Source: Nostoc sp. ChiQUE01b (GTDB lineage Bacteria > Cyanobacteriota > Cyanobacteriia > Cyanobacteriales > Nostocaceae). Taken from it: a stretch of 7,946 nt of DNA. The notes under the pieces were generated by a model, which searched no databases, was not told the DNA's origin, and worked only from the letters and a program-made list of their open reading frames with translations. Positions 1 to 7,946 of the stretch are shown piece by piece (position 1 is the stretch's first letter; every line of letters starts with the position of its first letter). Made by a program: the position numbers and the translations under genes. The stretch spans positions 1 to 7,946 of the forward strand of contig NZ_JAVRBM010000030.1 in assembly GCF_034531255.1 (NCBI RefSeq), given 5' to 3'.

Positions 1-311
1 CCTTGGCAGAGAAGGCTCTGCTTCCTAAACGACCTTTTCAGGTCGCGCCGGACTGGTTACCGTGATTCACTCACAACGAATCGCACCTGCCCTCTGCCTC
101 CTGCCTTCTTGAAAGTCACTCTCACCCAAACTGGGACTGATGCCCAAATTCAAGTTACAGATACTGGAAAAGGCATTAAACTAGACTTTTTACCCTATGT
201 GTTTGAACATTTTCGCCAAGAAGGTTTCAACGGCATCTAGCCAAACCAGTTGAGCCAAACGAAATTGTGACAATTGCTGCCCGTCTGTGTGGGCGAAAGG
301 AAAACGCATGA
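1..311 (+). pseudogene. Decayed 3' remnant of a paralogous hybrid histidine kinase: a HATPase_c G1-box segment joined out of frame to a receiver-domain C-terminal tail
   Basis: Frame 1, nt 112-222, reads KVTLTQTGTDAQIQVTDTGKGIKLDFLPYVFEHFRQE. Nt 142-223 match nt 3917-3998 of the large kinase at 68/82 positions by hand count, with differences mostly at third codon positions. From nt 225 a different frame (frame 3) reads FQRHLAKPVEPNEIVTIAARLCGRKENA, stopping at 309-311. This matches the receiver tail GFQRHLAKPIEPEMLVQTIV at 4493-4552; nt 223-241 are identical to 4494-4512. The roughly 495 nt that separate these segments in the intact paralog (G2 box and most of REC) are absent. The junction is 1 nt out of frame, so frame 1 terminates at TAG 238-240. 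The upstream N-box is degenerate (LTTNRTCPLPP versus LLANAVKFTPP). Confidence 0.55.
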
Positions 312-3300
312 CTGTGGATCGTTCAACGGCTGAACAGCTTTTTGCAGGCAAGGGCGAAATGGCAATGCGAATGCGATCGCACGATTGGTCGCAAACCCCG
401 CTTGGTGCTGTGGAAACTTGGACTCAAAGCCTGCGATCAACGCTGAGTATTTGCCTCAATTCCCGTTTTCCCATCGCCATTTACTGGGGGCAAGACTGCT
501 TGCTGCTCTACAACGATGCTTGGCGACCGATCGTTGGTGACAAGCACCCGTGGGCACTGGGTCGCCCCGCACGCGAAGTCTGGTCTGAGATTTGGGACGA
601 CATTGGGCCGGAATTAGCAGGCGTTTTAGCGACGGGTGAAGGCACATTCCATAACGATGAACTTTTGTCAATGCATCGGTTTGGCTATACCGAGGAATGT
701 TTCTTCGAGTACACCTTCAATCCCATCCAGGGGCAGGGCGGTGTGATTGACGGCGTATTTAACGTTGTCAGTGAAACTACCTATCGGGTGTTGAACGATC
801 GCCGCGCTCGCCTGCTCCGGGAAGTAGCAGCTAAAACTGGAACTACGAAAACTGCGGAAGAATTATGTGCCTTGATGGTAGAGGCTTTCAAGTCCGATCC
901 GTTTGACATTCCTTTTGCTTTCCTCTACTTGATTGACCAGGACGGGAAACAGGCTCGGCTATGTGGCAGTACTGATGCCCCAGACAGTTCCATCATTCCG
1001 GCGGTCGTAGACCTGACTGCGGCGAATGATATTGATGGCTGGGTGATCGCCCTGGCCGCTCGTACTGGCAAATCACAAGCGATCAATGATCTAGAATCTC
1101 GCTTTGGAAGACTCCCGGGCAGCCCTTGGTCAGAGCCACCACAGTCAGCAATGGTGTTGCCGATCGCTGCCACTGGGCAAGGTAAAGTTACCGGAGTGCT
1201 GGTGGTTGTTGCTAGCCCGCGTCGCAGACTCGATGATAATTACCGAGATTTCTTCGATCAAGTTGCTGGGCAGATGGCAACGGCACTCGCCAATGTCCGT
1301 GCTTATGAAGAAGAGCGTCAACGGGCGGAAGCGTTAGCAGAACTCGATCGCGCTAAAACCGTATTTTTCAGTAACATTAGCCATGAATTTCGGACTCCCT
1401 TGACGCTAATGTTGAGTCCCTTGGAGGCACTGGCGAACACATTAGATGAACGGTTACAATTCAATGAGCGGGAACAATTACAACTGGTGCAGCGCAACGG
1501 ACTGCGCTTACAAAAATTAGTCAATACGCTGCTCGATTTTTCGCGGATTGAAGCGGGACGAGTGCAAGCGATGTATGAGCCAACCGATTTAGCCGCATTC
1601 ACTAGCGACTTAGCCAGTGTATTTCGCTCCCTCATTGAACAGGCGGGATTGCAACTAAGGGTAGAGTGTCCGGCACTGCCAGAACCAGTGTATGTCGATC
1701 GCGATATGTGGGAAAAAATTGTTCTCAATTTGATGTCGAATGCGTTCAAGTTCACATTCACTGGCAGCATCACGGTTACATTACAGGCGATCGCGGATCG
1801 GGTAGAATTACAAGTTGCAGATACGGGTGTTGGCATTCCCCCAGAGGAATTACCGCGATTATTTGAACGATTTCATCGTGTCAATGGAGCAAAGTCACGC
1901 ACCTATGAAGGATCGGGGATTGGACTCGCCCTTGTGCAAGAGCTGGTGAAACTGCACGGAGGTTCGATTCGGGTCACGAGTGTTTTAGATCGAGGAACTA
2001 CGTTTACTGTGGCGATTCCGTTTGGTTCGACGCATCTACCAAGCGATCAAATTCAAACGCCCCGGACTCTGCAATCGACCGCGCTAGGAACGGCTCCGTT
2101 TGTGGAGGAAGCATCGCGTTGGCTATCTACAGAGAGTTCTGAGTTCTCAGTTTTGAGTTCTGAGTTAAATACTGAATCTTCAATTCAAAACTCAAAATTC
2201 AAAACTCAAAACTCTCTCTGCGCTCGGATTCTCTTAGCCGATGACAATGCCGATATGCGCGAATATGTCACACGCTTGTTAAGCCCATACTACGAAGTTG
2301 AAGCGGTGAGTGATGGCATGGCGGCATGGAAGGCGATCACTGAACGCGCTGTTGATTTAGTGCTGACAGACGTGATGATGCCGCGCTTGGATGGATTTGG
2401 CTTGTTGCGCCAACTGCGAGAACATCCGCAAACTCAAGAAATTTCGATTATTCTGTTATCGGCGCGGGCGGGAGAAGAAGCCCGTATTGAAGGTTTGGCA
2501 GCAGGAGCCGATGATTATCTGATTAAACCGTTCTCAGCGCGGGAACTGCTGGCAAAGGTCGAAGCAACCTTGAAGCTAACACAATTGCGGCGGGAAGCAA
2601 TGCAACGAGAGCAAGTGCTGAGGCTAGAAGCCGAAACTGCTCAACAGAAGGTGGAAACAATTCTATCGAGTATTAGTGATGCATTTGTGGTGCTGGATCG
2701 AGACTGGAATTTTACCTACGTCAACGATCGCTATTGTGAAATCGTTGATATGGAGCGGGAAGCTCTTTTAGGTCAAAACGTCTGGGAACTGTTTGCCGAT
2801 GCGGCTGGTAGCGAAGCTCACATTCAATTTCAACAGGTACTGAGGGAGCAAATCTCAGTGCAGTTTGAGTGGCTGTTTCCCACCTGGAATCGCTGGTTTG
2901 AGTATCGGGTTTACCCATCGCCGGATGGACTGACGATTTTTCTCTCTGAAATCACCGATGCAAAGCACCGCGAAGCAGAACGCAAACAAGCCGAAGAACA
3001 ACTGCGGCAGCGTGAAGCTGAACTGACAGAAGCGCAGCGCATCGGTAAGATTGGCAGTTGGTATTGGGACGCGAAGACCGACATCACCACTGGCTCAGAT
3101 CAACTGCTGCGGATTTACGGGTTTGATCCAAAGCGCGACACGATGCCCAACTTTGCTGCTCAGGACGGCTGGCTTTACCCGCACGCAAGTTGGCAGCGCA
3201 TCAATACGGCTGTCCAACAGGCATTGAAAACGGGAGTCGGCTACGAACTCGACGTGCAGGCATTTTGCAACGGTACGCCGATTTGGATCACTACCCGCTG

Positions 3301-4579
3301 TGAAGTTGTACGCGACTCAGACAGCACGATTGTGGGGTTACGCGGCACGGTTCAAGATATCACGGCAAGAAAACAGACAGAAGAAAAACTGTCCGAATCG
3401 GAAGAACGTTTACAAATGCTTTTAGCACGAGAACAAGCAGCACGGGAGTCTGCCGAAACCGCTAACCGCGTCAAAGACGAGTTTTTAGCCGTGCTGTCTC
3501 ATGAGTTGCGATCGCCCCTCAATCCCATTTTGGGTTGGTCAAAGCTGCTACAACAAGGCAACCTCGACGCGGCAAAAACGGCAAACGCGCTGGCCGTGAT
3601 CGCCCGCAATGCCCAACTGCAAGCGCAACTGATTGACGATCTGCTCGATATCTCGCGGATTCTGCGTGGCAAATTGAGTTTGAATCAGATGCCTGTTGAC
3701 TTGAATCTGGTGATTGCATCTGCCCTGGAAACGGTTCGCCTAGCTGCCGAAGCCAAGTCGTTGTACATTGAGACAACAGTTCTACCGAATATCAGAACCG
3801 TTACAGGTGATGCTGGACGATTGCAACAAGTGGTTTGGAATCTTCTTGCTAACGCAGTGAAGTTTACGCCACCAGGCGGACAAATCACCATCGCCTTGAC
3901 TCAAGGAGCAACTTATGCACAAATTCAAGTCATTGATACAGGTAAAGGTATTAATCCTGACTTTTTGCCCTACGTATTTGAGCATTTTCGCCAAGAAGAT
4001 GGAGCCACCACGCGGAAGTTTGGCGGACTGGGGTTAGGATTGGCGATCGCCCGGCAAATCGTCGAACTACATGGTGGAACTGTTGCAGTTGCTAGTCCAG
4101 GTGAAGGGCAGGGTGCCACCTTCACAGTCCAACTCCCACTTGCGCCTGTATCAAGTCCAACTTTGTCAAGAGCAGTTGACTCAGACTCAACGGATGACGA
4201 TTTGAGTGACATCCACATCTTAGTGGTGGATGATGAACCAGATTCCCGTGAGTTTGTGGCTTTTGTTCTAGAGCAAGCAGGCGCGATCGTCACCAATGTT
4301 GCATCGGGAATTGAGGCATTGCAAACCATCGATCAGTCCTTCGATCTCATCGTCAGCGATATTGGAATGCCAGAGATGGATGGCTATATGTTAATGCAAC
4401 AAATTCGGGCGCGATTGCCCGATCGCCAGATTCCAGCCATTGCTCTGACTGCCTACGCCGGAGAATTTGATCGCCAGCAGGCATTAGCCGCAGGGTTTCA
4501 ACGGCATCTAGCGAAACCGATTGAGCCAGAGATGCTTGTACAAACGATTGTGAGTTTAATTAACCTGAGTTCTATGTAA
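308..4579 (+). CDS. Multidomain hybrid sensor histidine kinase with two complete transmitter-receiver modules: N-terminal PAS-like sensor, GAF, HisKA, HATPase_c, REC, PAS, PAS, HisKA, HATPase_c, REC
   Basis: A single uninterrupted ORF; the track gives 287-4579 starting at GTG. I prefer ATG 308, which is preceded by AAGGAA at 297-302 and overlaps the remnant stop as ATGA. N-terminal motifs WSQTPLG...WTQSLRSTLSICLNSRFPIAIYWG...YNDAWRPIVGDKHPWALG are typical of the PAS-like sensor that precedes GAF in bacterial kinases. Module 1: H-box SHEFRTPL (His codon 1382-1384), N-box NLMSNAFKFT, G1 DTGVGI (about 1820), G2 GSGIGL, and REC with DDN, TDVMMP (Asp 2369-2371) and IKPF. Module 2: two PAS-like segments (about 2640-2950 and 3030-3370), H-box SHELRSPL (His 3500-3502), N-box NLLANAVKFT, G1 DTGKGI (3935-3952), G2 GGLGLGL, and REC with VDDEPD, SDIGMP (Asp 4358-4360) and AKPI. 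Stop TAA at 4577-4579. Confidence 0.93.
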   Translation: MTVDRSTAEQLFAGKGEMAMRMRSHDWSQTPLGAVETWTQSLRSTLSICLNSRFPIAIYWGQDCLLLYNDAWRPIVGDKHPWALGRPAREVWSEIWDDIGPELAGVLATGEGTFHNDELLSMHRFGYTEECFFEYTFNPIQGQGGVIDGVFNVVSETTYRVLNDRRARLLREVAAKTGTTKTAEELCALMVEAFKSDPFDIPFAFLYLIDQDGKQARLCGSTDAPDSSIIPAVVDLTAANDIDGWVIALAARTGKSQAINDLESRFGRLPGSPWSEPPQSAMVLPIAATGQGKVTGVLVVVASPRRRLDDNYRDFFDQVAGQMATALANVRAYEEERQRAEALAELDRAKTVFFSNISHEFRTPLTLMLSPLEALANTLDERLQFNEREQLQLVQRNGLRLQKLVNTLLDFSRIEAGRVQAMYEPTDLAAFTSDLASVFRSLIEQAGLQLRVECPALPEPVYVDRDMWEKIVLNLMSNAFKFTFTGSITVTLQAIADRVELQVADTGVGIPPEELPRLFERFHRVNGAKSRTYEGSGIGLALVQELVKLHGGSIRVTSVLDRGTTFTVAIPFGSTHLPSDQIQTPRTLQSTALGTAPFVEEASRWLSTESSEFSVLSSELNTESSIQNSKFKTQNSLCARILLADDNADMREYVTRLLSPYYEVEAVSDGMAAWKAITERAVDLVLTDVMMPRLDGFGLLRQLREHPQTQEISIILLSARAGEEARIEGLAAGADDYLIKPFSARELLAKVEATLKLTQLRREAMQREQVLRLEAETAQQKVETILSSISDAFVVLDRDWNFTYVNDRYCEIVDMEREALLGQNVWELFADAAGSEAHIQFQQVLREQISVQFEWLFPTWNRWFEYRVYPSPDGLTIFLSEITDAKHREAERKQAEEQLRQREAELTEAQRIGKIGSWYWDAKTDITTGSDQLLRIYGFDPKRDTMPNFAAQDGWLYPHASWQRINTAVQQALKTGVGYELDVQAFCNGTPIWITTRCEVVRDSDSTIVGLRGTVQDITARKQTEEKLSESEERLQMLLAREQAARESAETANRVKDEFLAVLSHELRSPLNPILGWSKLLQQGNLDAAKTANALAVIARNAQLQAQLIDDLLDISRILRGKLSLNQMPVDLNLVIASALETVRLAAEAKSLYIETTVLPNIRTVTGDAGRLQQVVWNLLANAVKFTPPGGQITIALTQGATYAQIQVIDTGKGINPDFLPYVFEHFRQEDGATTRKFGGLGLGLAIARQIVELHGGTVAVASPGEGQGATFTVQLPLAPVSSPTLSRAVDSDSTDDDLSDIHILVVDDEPDSREFVAFVLEQAGAIVTNVASGIEALQTIDQSFDLIVSDIGMPEMDGYMLMQQIRARLPDRQIPAIALTAYAGEFDRQQALAAGFQRHLAKPIEPEMLVQTIVSLINLSSM
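2131..2217. repeat. Intragenic palindromic heptamer-repeat element (STRR-like hairpin repeat), 87 nt, in frame within the kinase linker
   Basis: The left arm 2131-2166 is AGAGAGTTCTGAGTTCTCAGTTTTGAGTTCTGAGTT, tandem heptamers of form GAGTTCT/CAGTTTT. The right arm 2182-2217 is AATTCAAAACTCAAAATTCAAAACTCAAAACTCTCT. The reverse complement of the right arm matches the left arm at 30/36 positions by hand alignment, and 2 of the mismatches would be G-U pairs in RNA. The loop is 15 nt. The element translates to the low-complexity segment SEFSVLSSELNTESSIQNSKFKTQNS between HATPase_c and REC1. Confidence 0.75.
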
Positions 4580-4710: not shown

Positions 4711-5094
4711 TCACCTGATGAGATTCACTGCAATACTCAAATCCAGTTTTTTCCAAACCTTATCTGCTGTAAACACTGGAGCTTGCAGAATAATTCCCAG
4801 GGCTAAACAGGCGCGGTCGCCCAATGATAAGCCATGCTGCTGAGTTTGACCGTTCAAGTTAGCCGCGATATCTGCTTGCTCTTTATTAAAGGGGATTGCG
4901 TCAATATCCAACCAGCGCAAAATCTTTTGAGACGTGAATTGGTCATACTTTCTTTGTAGAACCGTTGATGTTTCGCAAAGGTTGACCATAGATATAACCG
5001 CATCAGCCAAAACACTTTTGACAACATCTTTGCCCGGTTCTTCGTGAATAAGCGTCAATAGCGCCGAGGCATCAAGAACCGCTTTGTTCTTCAC
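4711..5094 (-). CDS. vapC: PIN-domain ribonuclease toxin, VapC family
   Basis: The minus-strand ORF shows PIN hallmarks: N-terminal VLDASALL (first acidic residue), HEEPG, LSLGDRACLALG and FTADKVW. The track starts it at 5121, which is a TTG codon. GTG at 5094-5092 is preceded by AGGAG with a 7-nt spacer (reverse complement of 5095-5106) and gives MKNKAVLDASALL, 127 aa. This start overlaps the antitoxin 3' end by 23 nt. Stop at 4711-4713. Confidence 0.85.
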   Translation of the reverse strand: MKNKAVLDASALLTLIHEEPGKDVVKSVLADAVISMVNLCETSTVLQRKYDQFTSQKILRWLDIDAIPFNKEQADIAANLNGQTQQHGLSLGDRACLALGIILQAPVFTADKVWKKLDLSIAVNLIR

Positions 5095-5335
5095 GGGAAA
5101 ACTCCTCTCGTCTAGATGCAATTAATTCTTCGCTCCAACTAGAGCGATCGCCAGCACTAAGGGAGCGAACCAGATTATGTACCATCTCCAGCTTCTGAAA
5201 TTGAGACAAAATTTTCACTTCACCATTTTCTTCAGAAATGGTTATTGTATCGCCTTCGGCTATATGCAAATTCTTACGCAAAGATGCAGGCAGTGTTATT
5301 CTTCCCCCACTCAGTACATCTACCTTATATTCCAT
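5072..5335 (-). CDS. vapB: AbrB/SpoVT (MazE-like swapped-hairpin) antitoxin, VapB-type
   Basis: An 87-aa ORF lying immediately upstream of the PIN gene and overlapping it. The N-terminus, GGRITLPASLRKNLHIAEGDTITI, is the typical SpoVT/AbrB DNA-binding motif. The C-terminal half is acidic and Ser-rich, consistent with a toxin-binding tail. ATG at 5335-5333. Confidence 0.8.
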   Translation of the reverse strand: MEYKVDVLSGGRITLPASLRKNLHIAEGDTITISEENGEVKILSQFQKLEMVHNLVRSLSAGDRSSWSEELIASRREEFSREEQSGS

Positions 5336-5708: not shown

Positions 5709-5737
5709 TTTAAATTGCTAGCCCTTTGCTGTATACT
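5709..5737 (+). promoter_or_regulatory. Possible sigma70-type promoter for the caspase-like/NB-ARC locus
   Basis: TTTAAA (5709-5714), a 17-nt spacer, then TATACT (5732-5737), about 28 nt upstream of ATG 5765. This is a motif match only. No clear Shine-Dalgarno sequence precedes the ATG. Confidence 0.25.
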
Positions 5738-5764
5738 TGAAAGCAGCTACTCCCAACGTCAGCA

Positions 5765-6358
5765 ATGACCATCAAACCCCAAAAAATTTTGATTTTGGCA
5801 GCAAATCCTAAGCAGACAGTACGTTTGCGTCTCGATGAAGAATTGCGTGACATTAAGGAAGGTTTGCAAAGGGCGCAAAATCGGGAGAATTTTGATCTGC
5901 GGTATGATTTGGCAGTACGTCCGAGGGATATTCGCCGCGCTATTTTGGATTATCGACCAAACATTATCCACTTTTCTGGGCATGGTGCAGGAGTACAAGG
6001 ATTAGCTTTTGAAGATGAAATTGGAAACGAACAGCTAGTTACGGGAGAAGCATTAGCTGGACTTTTTGGACAGTTTTCTAATCAAGTAGAATGTGTGCTG
6101 TTGAATGCTTGCTACTCCCAAGTCCAAGCAAAAGCGATCGCCCAACACATCAATTATGTGATTGGCATGAACGATCAAATCCAAGATGAAGCGGCAATTG
6201 AATTTGTTGTGGGATTTTACGATGCACTTCTGGCTTACAATCCCCAATATGATCAAAGTTCGCCTGTAGAGTTTGCTTTTAATATTGCCAAGAATGCGAT
6301 TATGTTAGCTGGCGTGTCTGGCGAGTCGATTCCTGAAATTAAAAAAAAACTAATCTAA
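5765..6358 (+). CDS. Minimal caspase-fold (CHAT-type) cysteine-protease-like domain protein; probably the N-terminal effector module of the downstream STAND NTPase
   Basis: A 197-aa ORF. The pattern is KILILAANP..LRLDEELRDI (first strand and helix), then IIHFSGHG (His73, codon 5981-5983), GLAFEDE, and ECVLLNACYS (Cys116, codon 6110-6112). This spacing and context match the His-Cys dyad of CHAT/caspase-hemoglobinase-fold peptidases (HxxGHG ... hhLxACxS). The ORF ends IPEIKKKLI-stop, with KKK encoded by the A9 run. Confidence 0.7.
   Translation: MTIKPQKILILAANPKQTVRLRLDEELRDIKEGLQRAQNRENFDLRYDLAVRPRDIRRAILDYRPNIIHFSGHGAGVQGLAFEDEIGNEQLVTGEALAGLFGQFSNQVECVLLNACYSQVQAKAIAQHINYVIGMNDQIQDEAAIEFVVGFYDALLAYNPQYDQSSPVEFAFNIAKNAIMLAGVSGESIPEIKKKLI
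6341..6349 (+). other. A9 homopolymer at the frame junction between the caspase-like ORF and the NB-ARC ORF: candidate slippery or phase-variable site
   Basis: The sequence is gaaatt AAAAAAAAA ctaatctaa. In frame 2 it reads E I K K K L I stop (6356-6358). Frame 1 is open from 6343 onward, reading KKTNLTPHHLPLGNLTNVPELPPHFLLRPQQL. Moving back 1 nt after the AAA codon at 6347-6349, or adding one A, joins the two ORFs. Confidence 0.9.
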
Positions 6359-7946
6359 CTCCCCATCATCTACCTTTAGGAAATCTTACCAATGTCCCAG
6401 AATTACCACCGCACTTTTTACTCCGTCCCCAACAACTTACGCCCTTAAAACACAAGGTATTGTTGCTAACAAAACAACCTGTGGGGATTACAGGGAAAAG
6501 CCGCCGTGTTGGTGTGCAAGGAATGGGCGGAATTGGTAAAACAGTCTTAGCTACAGCACTGGCGCGGGATGAAGAGGTCAGAAAGGCGTTTCCTGATGGG
6601 GTGTTTTGGGTAACATTTGGACAAACACCCCAGATTTTGACTTGGCAATCCTATCTTGCTCAGGCGTTAGGCGACTTGCAAGCGGCCTTTACCGAGATTG
6701 GATTGGCGAAAGCACGGTTGCGAGAGCTGTTTGCAGATAAAGCTTGCTTGCTGATTTTGGATGATATTTGGCGTTTGGATGATGCGACGGCGTTTGATGT
6801 GTTAGGAGAACGGTGTCAAATGTTAGTTACCACCCGTAATGTAGCAATAGTTACAGGGATGGGAGGGGAAGAATATCAGCTTGAGGTCTTAGATGCACAA
6901 CAGGCGTTAGCACTTTTGGCAGATTGGGCAAATCAACCGCAGATCATTGACCCCACACAGCAAAATGATGTCATCTTGCAGGTAGCGCGGGAATGTGGAT
7001 ATTTGCCCTTAGCATTGGCGATGGTAGGGGCGATGATGCGCTTTAAACCGCCAAATCGCTGGCACAATATTTTAGAAAAACTACGTAGTGCTGATTTAGA
7101 GAAAATCAAACAACAGTTTCCCGATTATCCTTATCCAAATTTACTCAAGGCAATTCAGGTGAGTGTGGAGGATATGTCTGAGAATTATCAACAGCGATAT
7201 TTAGATTTTGCGGTCTTTCCTGAAGATACACCAATACCAGAAGCAGTATTGCAGACTTTTTGGCAACCGTTGGGGTTAGATGAGTTTGATAGCCAAGATG
7301 TGATTGATGAATTAGTGAGTAAATCTCTGGCTTTGCGGGATGAAGCGGGAAGTTTGCGCTTGCATGACTTGCAGTTTGATTATGTCAGAAAGCAGCACGC
7401 CACCTTAGTAACCGAAAGTGGAAGGATAGGTTTTTTGCACAATCGTCTATTAAATGCCTATAGTGAAAAATACTCTGAAGGTTGGCATAGTTTAGAAAAT
7501 GACGGTTATATCTATCAAAATTTAGCCTATCACTTGCAGACAGGGGGAAGGGAAACAGAATTACAACAACTGCTGTGTGATTTTCGCTGGTTGCAGGCGA
7601 AGTTGGAGAACACTAATGTTAATGGTTTGATAGCAGATTATGATTTTTTGCCTGAAGATGAGAATTTACAGTTAATTCAAGGTGCATTGCGACTGTCGGC
7701 ACATTTTTTAAATCAAGATAAACAGCAATTACCAGGGCAATTATTAGGGCGGTTGCTGGGTTTTGAAAGAGAAGAAATTCAAAGATTGTTAACGCAGGCG
7801 CAGCAATGCAAAACCCCTTCCTTGCTTCCCCAAACAGCCAGCTTGGCTCCCCCTGGCGGTTCCTTAGTACGTACCCTAGCAGGTCATAGCGACTCGGTAA
7901 ACGCAGTTGCCCTCACCCCAGATGGTCAGTACGTAATTTCAGGTTC
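6343..7946 (+). CDS. NB-ARC (Apaf-1/R-protein type) STAND NTPase with helical sensor-linker and the start of a WD40 repeat array; 3'-partial and lacking its own canonical start
   Basis: I translated frame 1 by hand. There is no stop from 6343 to the window end (more than 530 codons). The ORF is not in the supplied track because it has no ATG start and runs off the window. Motifs: Walker A GMGGIGKT (6520-6543), Walker B LLILDDIW (6748-6771), LVTTRN (6823-6840), GYLPLAL (6997-7017), an MHD-like LHD (7360-7368), then an Apaf-1-like helical region. The first WD40 repeat is SLVRTLAGHSDSVNAVALTPDGQYVISGS (7861-7946). The only in-frame start-like codons before the P-loop are TTG 6460/6463 and GTG 6481. 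These would remove the conserved pre-P-loop segment PHFLLRPQQLTPLKHKVL. Confidence 0.85.

Follow-up and report, generated by a model that had tools for sequence, protein, structure and literature searches.

In the insertion sequences IS1, IS3 and IS630, orfA and orfB are fused into a transposase by programmed -1 ribosomal frameshifting on A_AAA_AAG/A or by transcriptional slippage. Bacterial STAND and NLR-like proteins with caspase-like and Death-like modules are, for their part, seen as ancestors or analogues of the cell-death machinery of animals and plants. Runs of nine A or T support efficient RNA polymerase slippage in bacteria in vivo (PMC5009743). The A9 run of Thermus dnaX gives two products at about 1:1, or approximately 50% slippage (PMC5009743), and in Chlorobi, where dnaX is divided over two open reading frames (ORFs) at runs of A7 to A10, the long product requires recoding (PMC5009743; PMC3711429). 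In Escherichia coli reporters, frameshifting amounted to 10% with seven A, 40% with nine and 63% with eleven (PMC3711429). As summarized in PMC5009743, polymerase infidelity on poly(A) tracts also rescues frameshifted genes in the endosymbionts Buchnera and Blochmannia. Here, we analyzed a 7,946-nucleotide (nt) stretch of DNA from Nostoc sp. ChiQUE01b (contig NZ_JAVRBM010000030.1 of assembly GCF_034531255.1), hereafter the window, in which a run of nine A separates a CHAT protease ORF from a start-less frame encoding an Apaf-1-like NB-ARC protein. Comparison with related loci leads us to propose that this run is probably a conserved programmed -1 recoding site, acting through RNA polymerase slippage, ribosomal slippage or both, from which a free CHAT protein and a fusion protein would be made.

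The CHAT ORF lies on the forward strand in frame 2 (5765-6358) and encodes 197 amino acids (aa) ending in ...SIPEIKKKLI*. Close to its 3' end, the A9 run (AAAAAAAAA) covers 6341-6349, providing three zero-frame AAA codons and an in-phase A_AAA_AAA heptamer at 6343-6349; any A9 necessarily contains such a heptamer, so its presence is weakly discriminating. The zero-frame TAA (6356-6358) is two codons past the tract and begins 7 nt after it. In frame 1, the -1 or NB-ARC frame, a TAA at 6340-6342 sits at the 5' edge of the tract and limits the overlap of the two frames to the tract itself, in a TTAAA context found again in 11 of 15 related loci. Because of this stop, the NB-ARC frame opens at 6343, within the run. 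It stays open to the window end (6343-7946, forward strand, 534 codons) and reads KKTNLTPHHLPLGNLTNVPELPPHFLLRPQQLTPLKHKV... (KKTNLTPHHLPLGNLTNVPELPPHFLLRPQQLTPLKHKVLLLTKQPVGITGKSRRVGVQGMGGIGKT...). Around the zero-frame stop, the NB-ARC frame decodes N-L-T (AAT YTA ACN), and TTTAAC or TCTAAC is kept there in every locus arranged as in the window (type I) except L021. A first-pass annotation of the window had described a caspase-like frame 2 and an NB-ARC frame 1 split by A9, with the frame-2 stop 7 nt after the run and frame 1 open from 6343, and all of these coordinates were confirmed. A run of nine A is not by itself beyond chance in this AT-rich window (it appeared in 66 of 200 shuffles), so the significance of the tract rests on its position and on the comparison with other genomes.

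Domain homology identifies the upstream ORF as a predicted CHAT (clan CD, caspase-fold) protease with conserved His and Cys residues. Its 197 aa make up a minimal caspase-fold protease domain that scores above the Pfam gathering score for CHAT (E 3e-10) and matches the PADLOC chat model (4e-18), and among solved structures it is closest to the CHAT domain of PDB 8tl0 (E 1.5e-16). The candidate dyad, His69 (5969-5971, in IIHFSGHG) and Cys116 (6110-6112, in LLNACYS), is invariant in our alignment A3. The downstream frame has the predicted layout of an Apaf-1/CED-4-type STAND NTPase, with a P-loop nucleotide-binding domain (NBD), a winged helix domain (WHD), helical domain 2 (HD2) and a repeat sensor. 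All of its Pfam matches are on the forward strand: NB-ARC at 6505-7173 (3e-34; P-loop GMGGIGKT at 6520-6543), the APAF-1-like WHD at 7186-7383 (4e-9), the APAF1_C helical domain at 7435-7713 (9e-14) and a first WD40 blade at 7858-7944. Against Apaf-1 itself, the frame matched residues 119-564 (E 2e-41).

Between the two sets of domains, the NB-ARC frame encodes a junction linker (6349-6393, forward strand, TNLTPHHLPLGNLTN) without any ATG, GTG or TTG codon. It is followed by an N-terminal NB-ARC segment (6394-6480, forward strand, VPELPPHFLLRPQQLTPLKHKV...), which lies upstream of every conserved start codon and includes the motif GNLTNVPELPPHFLPR, nearly invariant among loci. The sequence VPELPPHFLLRPQQLTPLKHKV aligns with Apaf-1 residues 119-143 (VPQRPVVFVTRKKLVNAIQQKL), residues that we take to form part of the NBD in the solved structure. 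On this alignment, the NB-ARC domain starts at nt 6394, 42 codons before the P-loop, and the Apaf-1 homology begins 22 codons ahead of the first possible start codon. In the AlphaFold2 model of a fused orthologue from Iningainema tapete (P0001; predicted local distance difference test (pLDDT) score 63.8 overall, low confidence), junction residues 196-205 and 212-220, most of the linker, have pLDDT values below 50, which fits a flexible or disordered linker.

The first in-frame ATG of frame 1 is codon 61, within the P-loop, and between 6343 and 6459 the frame is without any ATG, GTG, TTG, CTG or ATH codon. Re-initiation at a non-AUG codon near the stop was ruled out, as there is no near-start codon in that interval. 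We estimated the ratio of nonsynonymous to synonymous substitutions (dN/dS) by the Nei-Gojobori method from 14 ungapped sequences in the -1 state, with the window included and L038 left out of the pairs. Over the 44 codons from the tract to the GTG at 6481 (6349-6480), dN/dS was 0.31 in frame 1 compared to 1.23 and 1.07 in the other frames, and it was 0.23 at the end of the CHAT ORF. Minimum changes in the same interval numbered 17, 16 and 32 at the three codon positions (p = 0.025), a pattern shared by the CHAT C-terminus, and for 6394-6480 alone they numbered 11, 9 and 22 (p = 0.03). By these substitution patterns, the start-less stretch evolves as protein in the NB-ARC frame and appears to be translated. 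The first-pass annotation had argued from coding constraint without a start codon. The dN/dS values and the homology of the linker to the N-terminal part of the Apaf-1 NBD bear out the constraint, and its statement that the frame runs for about 55 codons with no ATG stands; it had overlooked TTG at codons 40 and 41 (6460 and 6463) and GTG at codon 47 (6481), which are not conserved.

To place the junction among relatives, we used the conceptual fusion protein to scan 185,579 species genomes and took the junction from each of the 79 loci obtained. Fifteen further type-I loci, from about 14 Nostocales genomes, have the homologous tract, equal total length and the same -1 arrangement. The tract is A9 in twelve of them; in L012 and L013 a substitution next to it makes it A10, and L021 has A9G. 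In all 15, the NB-ARC frame opens within the tract, and the CHAT ORF ends two codons past it, with the TAA conserved everywhere except in L021. The CHAT ORF is 197 aa long in 10 other loci, 202-207 aa in L016 and L021, and 198 aa in L038. The hosts are Nostoc minutum NIES-26, Nostoc sp. 106C, N. linckia FACHB-104, N. carneum NIES-2107 (two copies), Calothrix brevissima NIES-22, C. membranacea FACHB-236, Tolypothrix tenuis PCC 7101, Tolypothrix FACHB-123, Mojavia pulchra, Scytonematopsis contorta and several metagenome-assembled genomes (MAGs). Ten of the 15 NB-ARC frames span 1011-1155 codons without any other lesion, four span 589-871 codons and one runs off its contig. The NB-ARC core has a dN/dS of 0.15 among type-I loci at a synonymous divergence of about 0.3.

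Two sequences nearly identical to the window at the junction also carry A9. The Logan assembly of SRR25993453 (L001) is 100% identical over 4.4 kb including the run, and possibly derives from the same reads as the window, so its independence is not established. L011, from Tolypothrix sp. VBCCA 56010, is 99.6% identical over a 231-nt junction stretch and 96.7% over the shared 1,954 nt. Within 364 kb of related Nostocales loci, we counted 35 runs of at least nine A or T, 32 of which are at the effector/NB-ARC junction. Across all clades, the 41 split loci in the tally need -1 and none needs +1 (L017 and L019 fell outside the tally); counted across species, 25 loci are in the -1 state, five are in-frame and two are in a +1-needing state. 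A scan of metagenomes with the linker DNA pattern returned three matches, two of them duplicates of known loci and one unrelated, and BLAST against annotated plasmids returned CHAT-module matches at 64-73% identity, none of which spanned the junction.

Fused homologues show what the two frames encode when read as one. Iningainema tapete P0001 (92% identical; junction ...ELKKNNLTPHH...) and Brasilonema P0002 (junction ...VLKKKTNLATL...) are single ORFs, as are homologues in a 68%-identical Tolypothrix/Spirirestis group and plasmid copies in Acaryochloris. Four close relatives are in frame by four routes, namely A10 (L009), A11 (L003), A8 with loss of AC (L002) and an extra T (L010). They appear as tips among -1-state loci in a rough neighbour-joining tree of the NB-ARC region, which is distorted by insertions in some loci and was used qualitatively only. 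L009 and P0002 encode exactly KKKTNL, the junction predicted from a -1 event on the window tract and put forward by the first-pass annotation as ...IPEIKKK-TNLTPHH.... These comparisons indicate that the fusion is the ancestral form and the product that the gene is meant to make.

L009 and L014 are inverted paralogues at the two ends of a 20.7-kb contig of Nostoc sp. P8219 (NZ_JBALEO010000035.1). L009 has A10 and is in frame (1267 aa), and L014 has A9 and is split, with a 1131-aa NB-ARC frame; both states thus coexist in one genome. Two loci would need +1, or two extra A's: L017:4577-4585, from a Stigonema MAG, has lost the C after the run, and L019:4576-4584, from Nostoc sp. T09, has lost the T before it. 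Their NB-ARC frames are intact (1097-1179 codons), and either transcripts that carry two additional A's or lack one rescue these loci, or the loci are young pseudogenes.

A second architecture (type II) has an extra domain of about 95 aa between CHAT and NB-ARC, identified by Pfam as bDLD3 (Bacterial Death-like domain 3). Here, the homologue of the window tract at 6341-6349 is an in-frame A8 (ELKKNPN...), and a second A9, with an immediate zero-frame stop, is found at the end of bDLD3, about 186-190 nt 5' of the P-loop. The junction reads TTA AAA AAA AAG TAG in L031 and L032, and TTA or CTA AAA AAA AAC TAG in L034, L036 and L040-L045. All ten split type-II loci have A9, and all ten need -1 to enter the NB-ARC frame, which reads ...KKK(L/V)VDD...LGQLIGNVP(E/N)LPPHFLPR. 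Across this linker, dN/dS was 0.40 in the NB-ARC frame compared to 0.75 and 2.35 in the others, at a synonymous difference of 0.40. The single in-frame member, L035 from Aetokthonos, has A10. On this comparative evidence, the type-II A9 is a second, independent instance of the -1 site.

Conservation, coding constraint, absence of start codons and domain homology were all observed at the type-I junction, and from them we infer the molecular step. A promoter upstream of 5765 would produce one mRNA covering both frames. A promoter-like site (TTTAAA-17 nt-TATACT, 5709-5737, forward strand) lies 5' of the CHAT ORF and matches at 9 of 12 positions, a signal that is weak alone, as the count of such sites was not above that in shuffles; no promoter-like site was found in the window between the CHAT and NB-ARC ORFs. 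Standard decoding of this mRNA would give the free 197-aa CHAT protease, ending at 6356. RNA polymerase stuttering on the T9 template could add one A, giving an A10 mRNA, or the ribosome could move back one base on A_AAA_AAA. Either route would lead to the same protein, ...IPEIKKK-TNLTPHH..., with the frames joined as KKK-T and a trans-frame peptide (K)TNLTPHHLPLGNLTNVPELPPHFLLR. The slipped product would have the order CHAT-NB-ARC-WHD-HD2-WD40 and, by orthologue comparison, about 1,330 aa, and would amount to an all-in-one apoptosome-like NLR.

We found no conserved RNA structure downstream of the tract (RNAalifold on 15 loci, -0.08 kcal/mol, 2 pairs, no covariation) and no stable fold in the 101 nt at window positions 6350-6450, whose minimum free energy of -0.6 kcal/mol (z = +1.8) was weaker than that of 194 of 200 shuffles. 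About 17 nt upstream of the tract, inspection revealed GGCGAG or GGTGAG, varying at synonymous sites, and no clear GGAGG. Because the run is 9-10 A long and no stimulatory RNA structure was found, RNA polymerase slippage is more likely to be the main route, with ribosomal -1 slippage as a possible contributor. The first-pass annotation had likewise noted no strong stimulatory hairpin. Its proposal that translation enters the NB-ARC frame from CHAT by a -1 event gains support from the 15 type-I and 10 type-II loci, and among the mechanisms it offered, slippage or frameshifting is favored and a phase-variable switch is less likely.

Several observations weigh against programmed recoding. The first 14 codons after the tract, a stretch too short for the purpose, gave no significant codon-position bias. 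A synonymous test of AAA against AAG on the tract (whose AAG-interrupted form would be AAGAAGAAA) was not significant either, as 7 of 12 other conserved Lys columns are also all AAA. In E. coli, ribosomes shift only weakly on A_AAA_AAA when no stimulator accompanies it (PMC5009743). The two +1-needing loci, L017 and L019, and the four to five in-frame relatives mean that the out-of-frame state is not obligatory. In addition, we infer the recoding event itself from sequence comparison, and the adaptive value of the product ratio is our interpretation.

If recoding occurs as proposed, the site would set how much free effector is made per effector-tethered sensor and could keep the large, potentially lethal sensor scarce. 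In type II, the free product would be CHAT-bDLD3 and the long product would contain the same Death-like domain, which suggests homotypic recruitment of the free effector to an oligomerised sensor, much like that of caspase-9 to Apaf-1. The free product may be a response amplifier, a decoy or a by-product. We tentatively suggest a stoichiometry device, as one possibility that we hold with less than even confidence: one mRNA would yield many free CHAT (or CHAT plus Death-like domain) effectors and a few welded to an Apaf-1-like sensor, the fusion, once activated and oligomerised, would act as a nucleus to which CHAT-CHAT or bDLD3-bDLD3 contacts draw the free effector, and lineages could retune the ratio by switching between A9 and A10 alleles.

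We next weighed other explanations of the split. The tract could be a phase-variable contingency switch, with heritable and reversible A9 to A10 changes by DNA-replication slippage, in which the OFF state makes CHAT only, the ON state makes the fused NLR, and selection on the ON subpopulation keeps the downstream frame. Close relatives do differ in tract length, with in-frame A8, A9 plus T, A10 and A11 against out-of-frame A9; the paralogues L009 and L014 differ in state on one contig; L035 has A10 against A9 in ten other type-II loci; and poly-A tracts are known to undergo replication slippage (PMC3711429). However, the single OFF state dominates (25 loci, against five in-frame and two +1) despite a synonymous divergence of 0.3-0.4, a distribution not expected of a tract that switches rapidly, and total length was kept where the run was changed by substitution (L012, L013 and L021). 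Two of the four in-frame conversions were made through non-A indels (L002 and L010), the window, L001 and L011 all have A9, and nine A is short for an efficient contingency tract. We therefore consider a switch unlikely, and it would in any case be compatible with RNA-level slippage, which is expected at A9 regardless.

A second explanation shares the slippage mechanism of programmed recoding and differs in that nothing is programmed. An ancestral 1-nt loss at a mutable K-K-K linker would have gone unrepaired, unselected polymerase infidelity would leak enough full-length protein, as is described for endosymbiont poly(A) tracts, and free CHAT would have no function. Many CHAT-X fusions have, as an ancestral in-frame feature, a KK(K/N) linker with A8 (e.g., ELKKNPN), in-frame revertants appear viable, and the Lys-codon test detects no selection on the run. 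Against this, the split has arisen, or has been kept, separately at two tracts, in types I and II, and outlasted speciation, paralogue duplication and effector-module swapping. The zero-frame stop is 0-2 codons past the tract and the -1-frame stop is at its 5' edge, and runs of at least nine A or T are nearly absent elsewhere in related loci, which speaks for their usual removal and for their retention at this junction. A tolerated frameshift is, in our judgment, rather improbable.

CHAT and NB-ARC could also be two ordinary genes, with NB-ARC starting at TTG (6460 or 6463) or GTG (6481) and the tract encoding no more than a Lys-rich CHAT C-terminus. Gene callers and the NCBI Prokaryotic Genome Annotation Pipeline (PGAP) treat them this way: public annotation lists CHAT as a protein of its own, next to an NB-ARC protein truncated at the N-terminus (P0023, P0034, P0059 and P0061), and for P0023, a near-identical protein, NCBI places the start at the second TTG. 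The annotators' GTG, 13 codons before the P-loop, is in most loci, and slightly overlapping effector/NLR gene pairs are common in bacteria (bioRxiv 10.1101/2020.01.06.895854). However, this GTG is missing in L013, L014, L021 and L027, the TTG codons of the window are missing in nearly all other loci, and no Shine-Dalgarno sequence precedes the annotated GTG and TTG starts. In type-I and type-II loci except L038, no ATG, GTG or TTG lies more than 21 codons ahead of the P-loop. The candidate starts are 22-29 codons within the region homologous to the Apaf-1 NBD, and independent initiation would therefore yield a truncated NBD. The start-less stretch upstream of them is coding-constrained and, in in-frame relatives, contiguous with CHAT. 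The orthologue comparison raised by the first-pass annotation thus revealed a retained homopolymer and no bona fide start and ribosome-binding site for an NB-ARC gene, which makes two ordinary genes very improbable.

An error of sequencing or assembly in the homopolymer, or a recent mutation that inactivated the gene, listed in the first-pass annotation as trivial explanations, is effectively refuted: homopolymers are classic error sites and this is a draft assembly whose contig ends in WD40 repeats, but about 25 loci sequenced independently (for the most part Illumina assemblies, plus near-complete NIES genomes) show the same state, the Logan re-assembly L001 has the same A9, and the ten long frames without secondary lesions and the low dN/dS of the NB-ARC core do not fit a pseudogene.

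More distant junctions, in Leptolyngbya/Leptothoe-like genomes, were also collected in the scan. In type III (L048, L055, L056, L066 and L075), the effector ORF ends in CTA AAA AAG TAG, with an in-phase A_AAA_AAG, and in type IV (L047, L050, L054, L058 and L061) it ends in NCC CCT TAG or TAA. In these CHAT/NB-ARC loci, which are 43-59% identical relatives, the NB-ARC frame is always at -1. Frameshifting may occur at their junctions too, with a C_CCT P-site slip at the stop codon as one possibility. Some of the loci have a start codon within the next 16-40 codons, compatible with an ordinary gene pair, and we treat them as leads only.

Other features of the locus and its relatives concern the modules and their surroundings. 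Homology of L011 to the window begins mid-CHAT (window 5993-7946); upstream of this point the two differ, and the L011 CHAT frame is cut at its N-terminus. The breakpoint indicates recombination inside the effector module, in line with swapping of effector modules on a common NB-ARC backbone. The NB-ARC homologues P0003-P0005, P0007 and P0059 have in-frame low-complexity insertions or tails (TSPPAPPLRGEGS..., NPTPNPSPQAGRGKD...) that look like translated short dispersed repeat or miniature inverted-repeat transposable element (MITE) DNA and that also distort the neighbour-joining tree. A leader 5' of the CHAT ORF, TGTATACTT...CTCCCAAC...GGCAATGAC, is common to many related loci. In the window (5725-5767), it reads TGTATACTT(A/G)AAA..GC.AC.CCCAAC...GGCAATGAC, and it stands directly 5' of the ATG in L002, L003, L028, L033, L035 and L037, preceding both CHAT genes and stand-alone bDLD3-NB-ARC genes. 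This distribution suggests that the conflict-system genes of the group share a promoter or 5'-untranslated-region element. Directly upstream, on the reverse strand, is a VapBC-type toxin-antitoxin pair (4711-5335), also on Logan contig L001, made up of a PIN-domain ORF (4711-5121; Pfam PIN, 2e-11) and an overlapping MazE/AbrB-type antitoxin ORF (5072-5335; 7e-7). The first half of the window is occupied by a forward-strand ORF of 1430 aa (287-4579), a hybrid sensor histidine kinase by motif inspection only, with two kinase cores and two receiver domains.

A full-text literature search returned no link of CHAT, NB-ARC or NLR proteins with frameshifting. Frameshifting is not mentioned in two surveys (PMC8195603, by Kaur, Burroughs, Iyer and Aravind, eLife 2021, and bioRxiv 10.1101/2020.01.06.895854). 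The available portions of the GeneTack survey text contain no such link, and those of its supplements no WD40, Nostoc or NB-ARC entries. The proposed mechanism is of a well-known kind, represented by dnaX, IS transposases and endosymbiont tracts, and we found no published description of its use with CHAT/NB-ARC. If the suggested stoichiometry device exists, it would amount to a single-gene version of the Apaf-1/caspase-9 apoptosome, and no recoding signal would have been described before it in an NLR or apoptosis-like immune system of prokaryotes. With a conserved recoding site at the effector/sensor joint, a non-mobile, non-housekeeping family would join the few chromosomal bacterial genes with programmed slippage. 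Public annotation would then mis-split these genes and distort censuses of domain architecture. The loci would also offer a model, open to direct test, of how a product ratio controls the assembly of a prokaryotic apoptosome, and a natural A8 to A11 allele set for measuring slippage in cyanobacteria.

Compared with the described systems, the locus resembles dnaX (tau/gamma; Thermus A9, Chlorobi A7-A10) in having an A9-A10 run within a coding region and, as proposed here, a short and a long product sharing an N-terminus. In both, the zero-frame stop is close behind the run and no RNA structure is needed (PMC5009743; PMC3711429), and homologues occur in frame, where slippage gives the short form, as well as split, where it gives the long form. 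In contrast, dnaX encodes the clamp loader of replication, whereas the protein here is an NLR-like cell-death or immunity protein whose recoding we propose from comparison. As in IS orfA-orfB, a -1 shift on an A-rich heptamer or run would fuse a small ORF to a large start-less one, and the fused product would be the scarce, potentially harmful one. At IS3-type sites, a hairpin or pseudoknot usually follows the shift site and a Shine-Dalgarno-like stimulator often precedes it; here no such downstream structure and no clear GGAGG were found, and the gene is not part of a mobile element. With endosymbiont tracts, the locus would share restoration of frame in part of the mRNA pool by transcription of an A-run. 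Those tracts are scattered in AT-rich decaying genomes under weak selection, while the run here occupies one conserved position in free-living, large-genome Nostocales in which runs of at least nine A or T are otherwise rare. The domain content parallels Apaf-1/caspase-9 and the bacterial systems built on effector-associated domains (EADs) and Death-like domains (PMC8195603), in which an NB-ARC, WHD, HD2 and WD40 scaffold is combined with a caspase-fold protease, and bDLD3 as the coupling module of type II parallels CARD in Apaf-1 and caspase-9. In Apaf-1/caspase-9 the protease is recruited through adaptor domains, whereas here it would be covalently fused to the sensor through the proposed frame transition.

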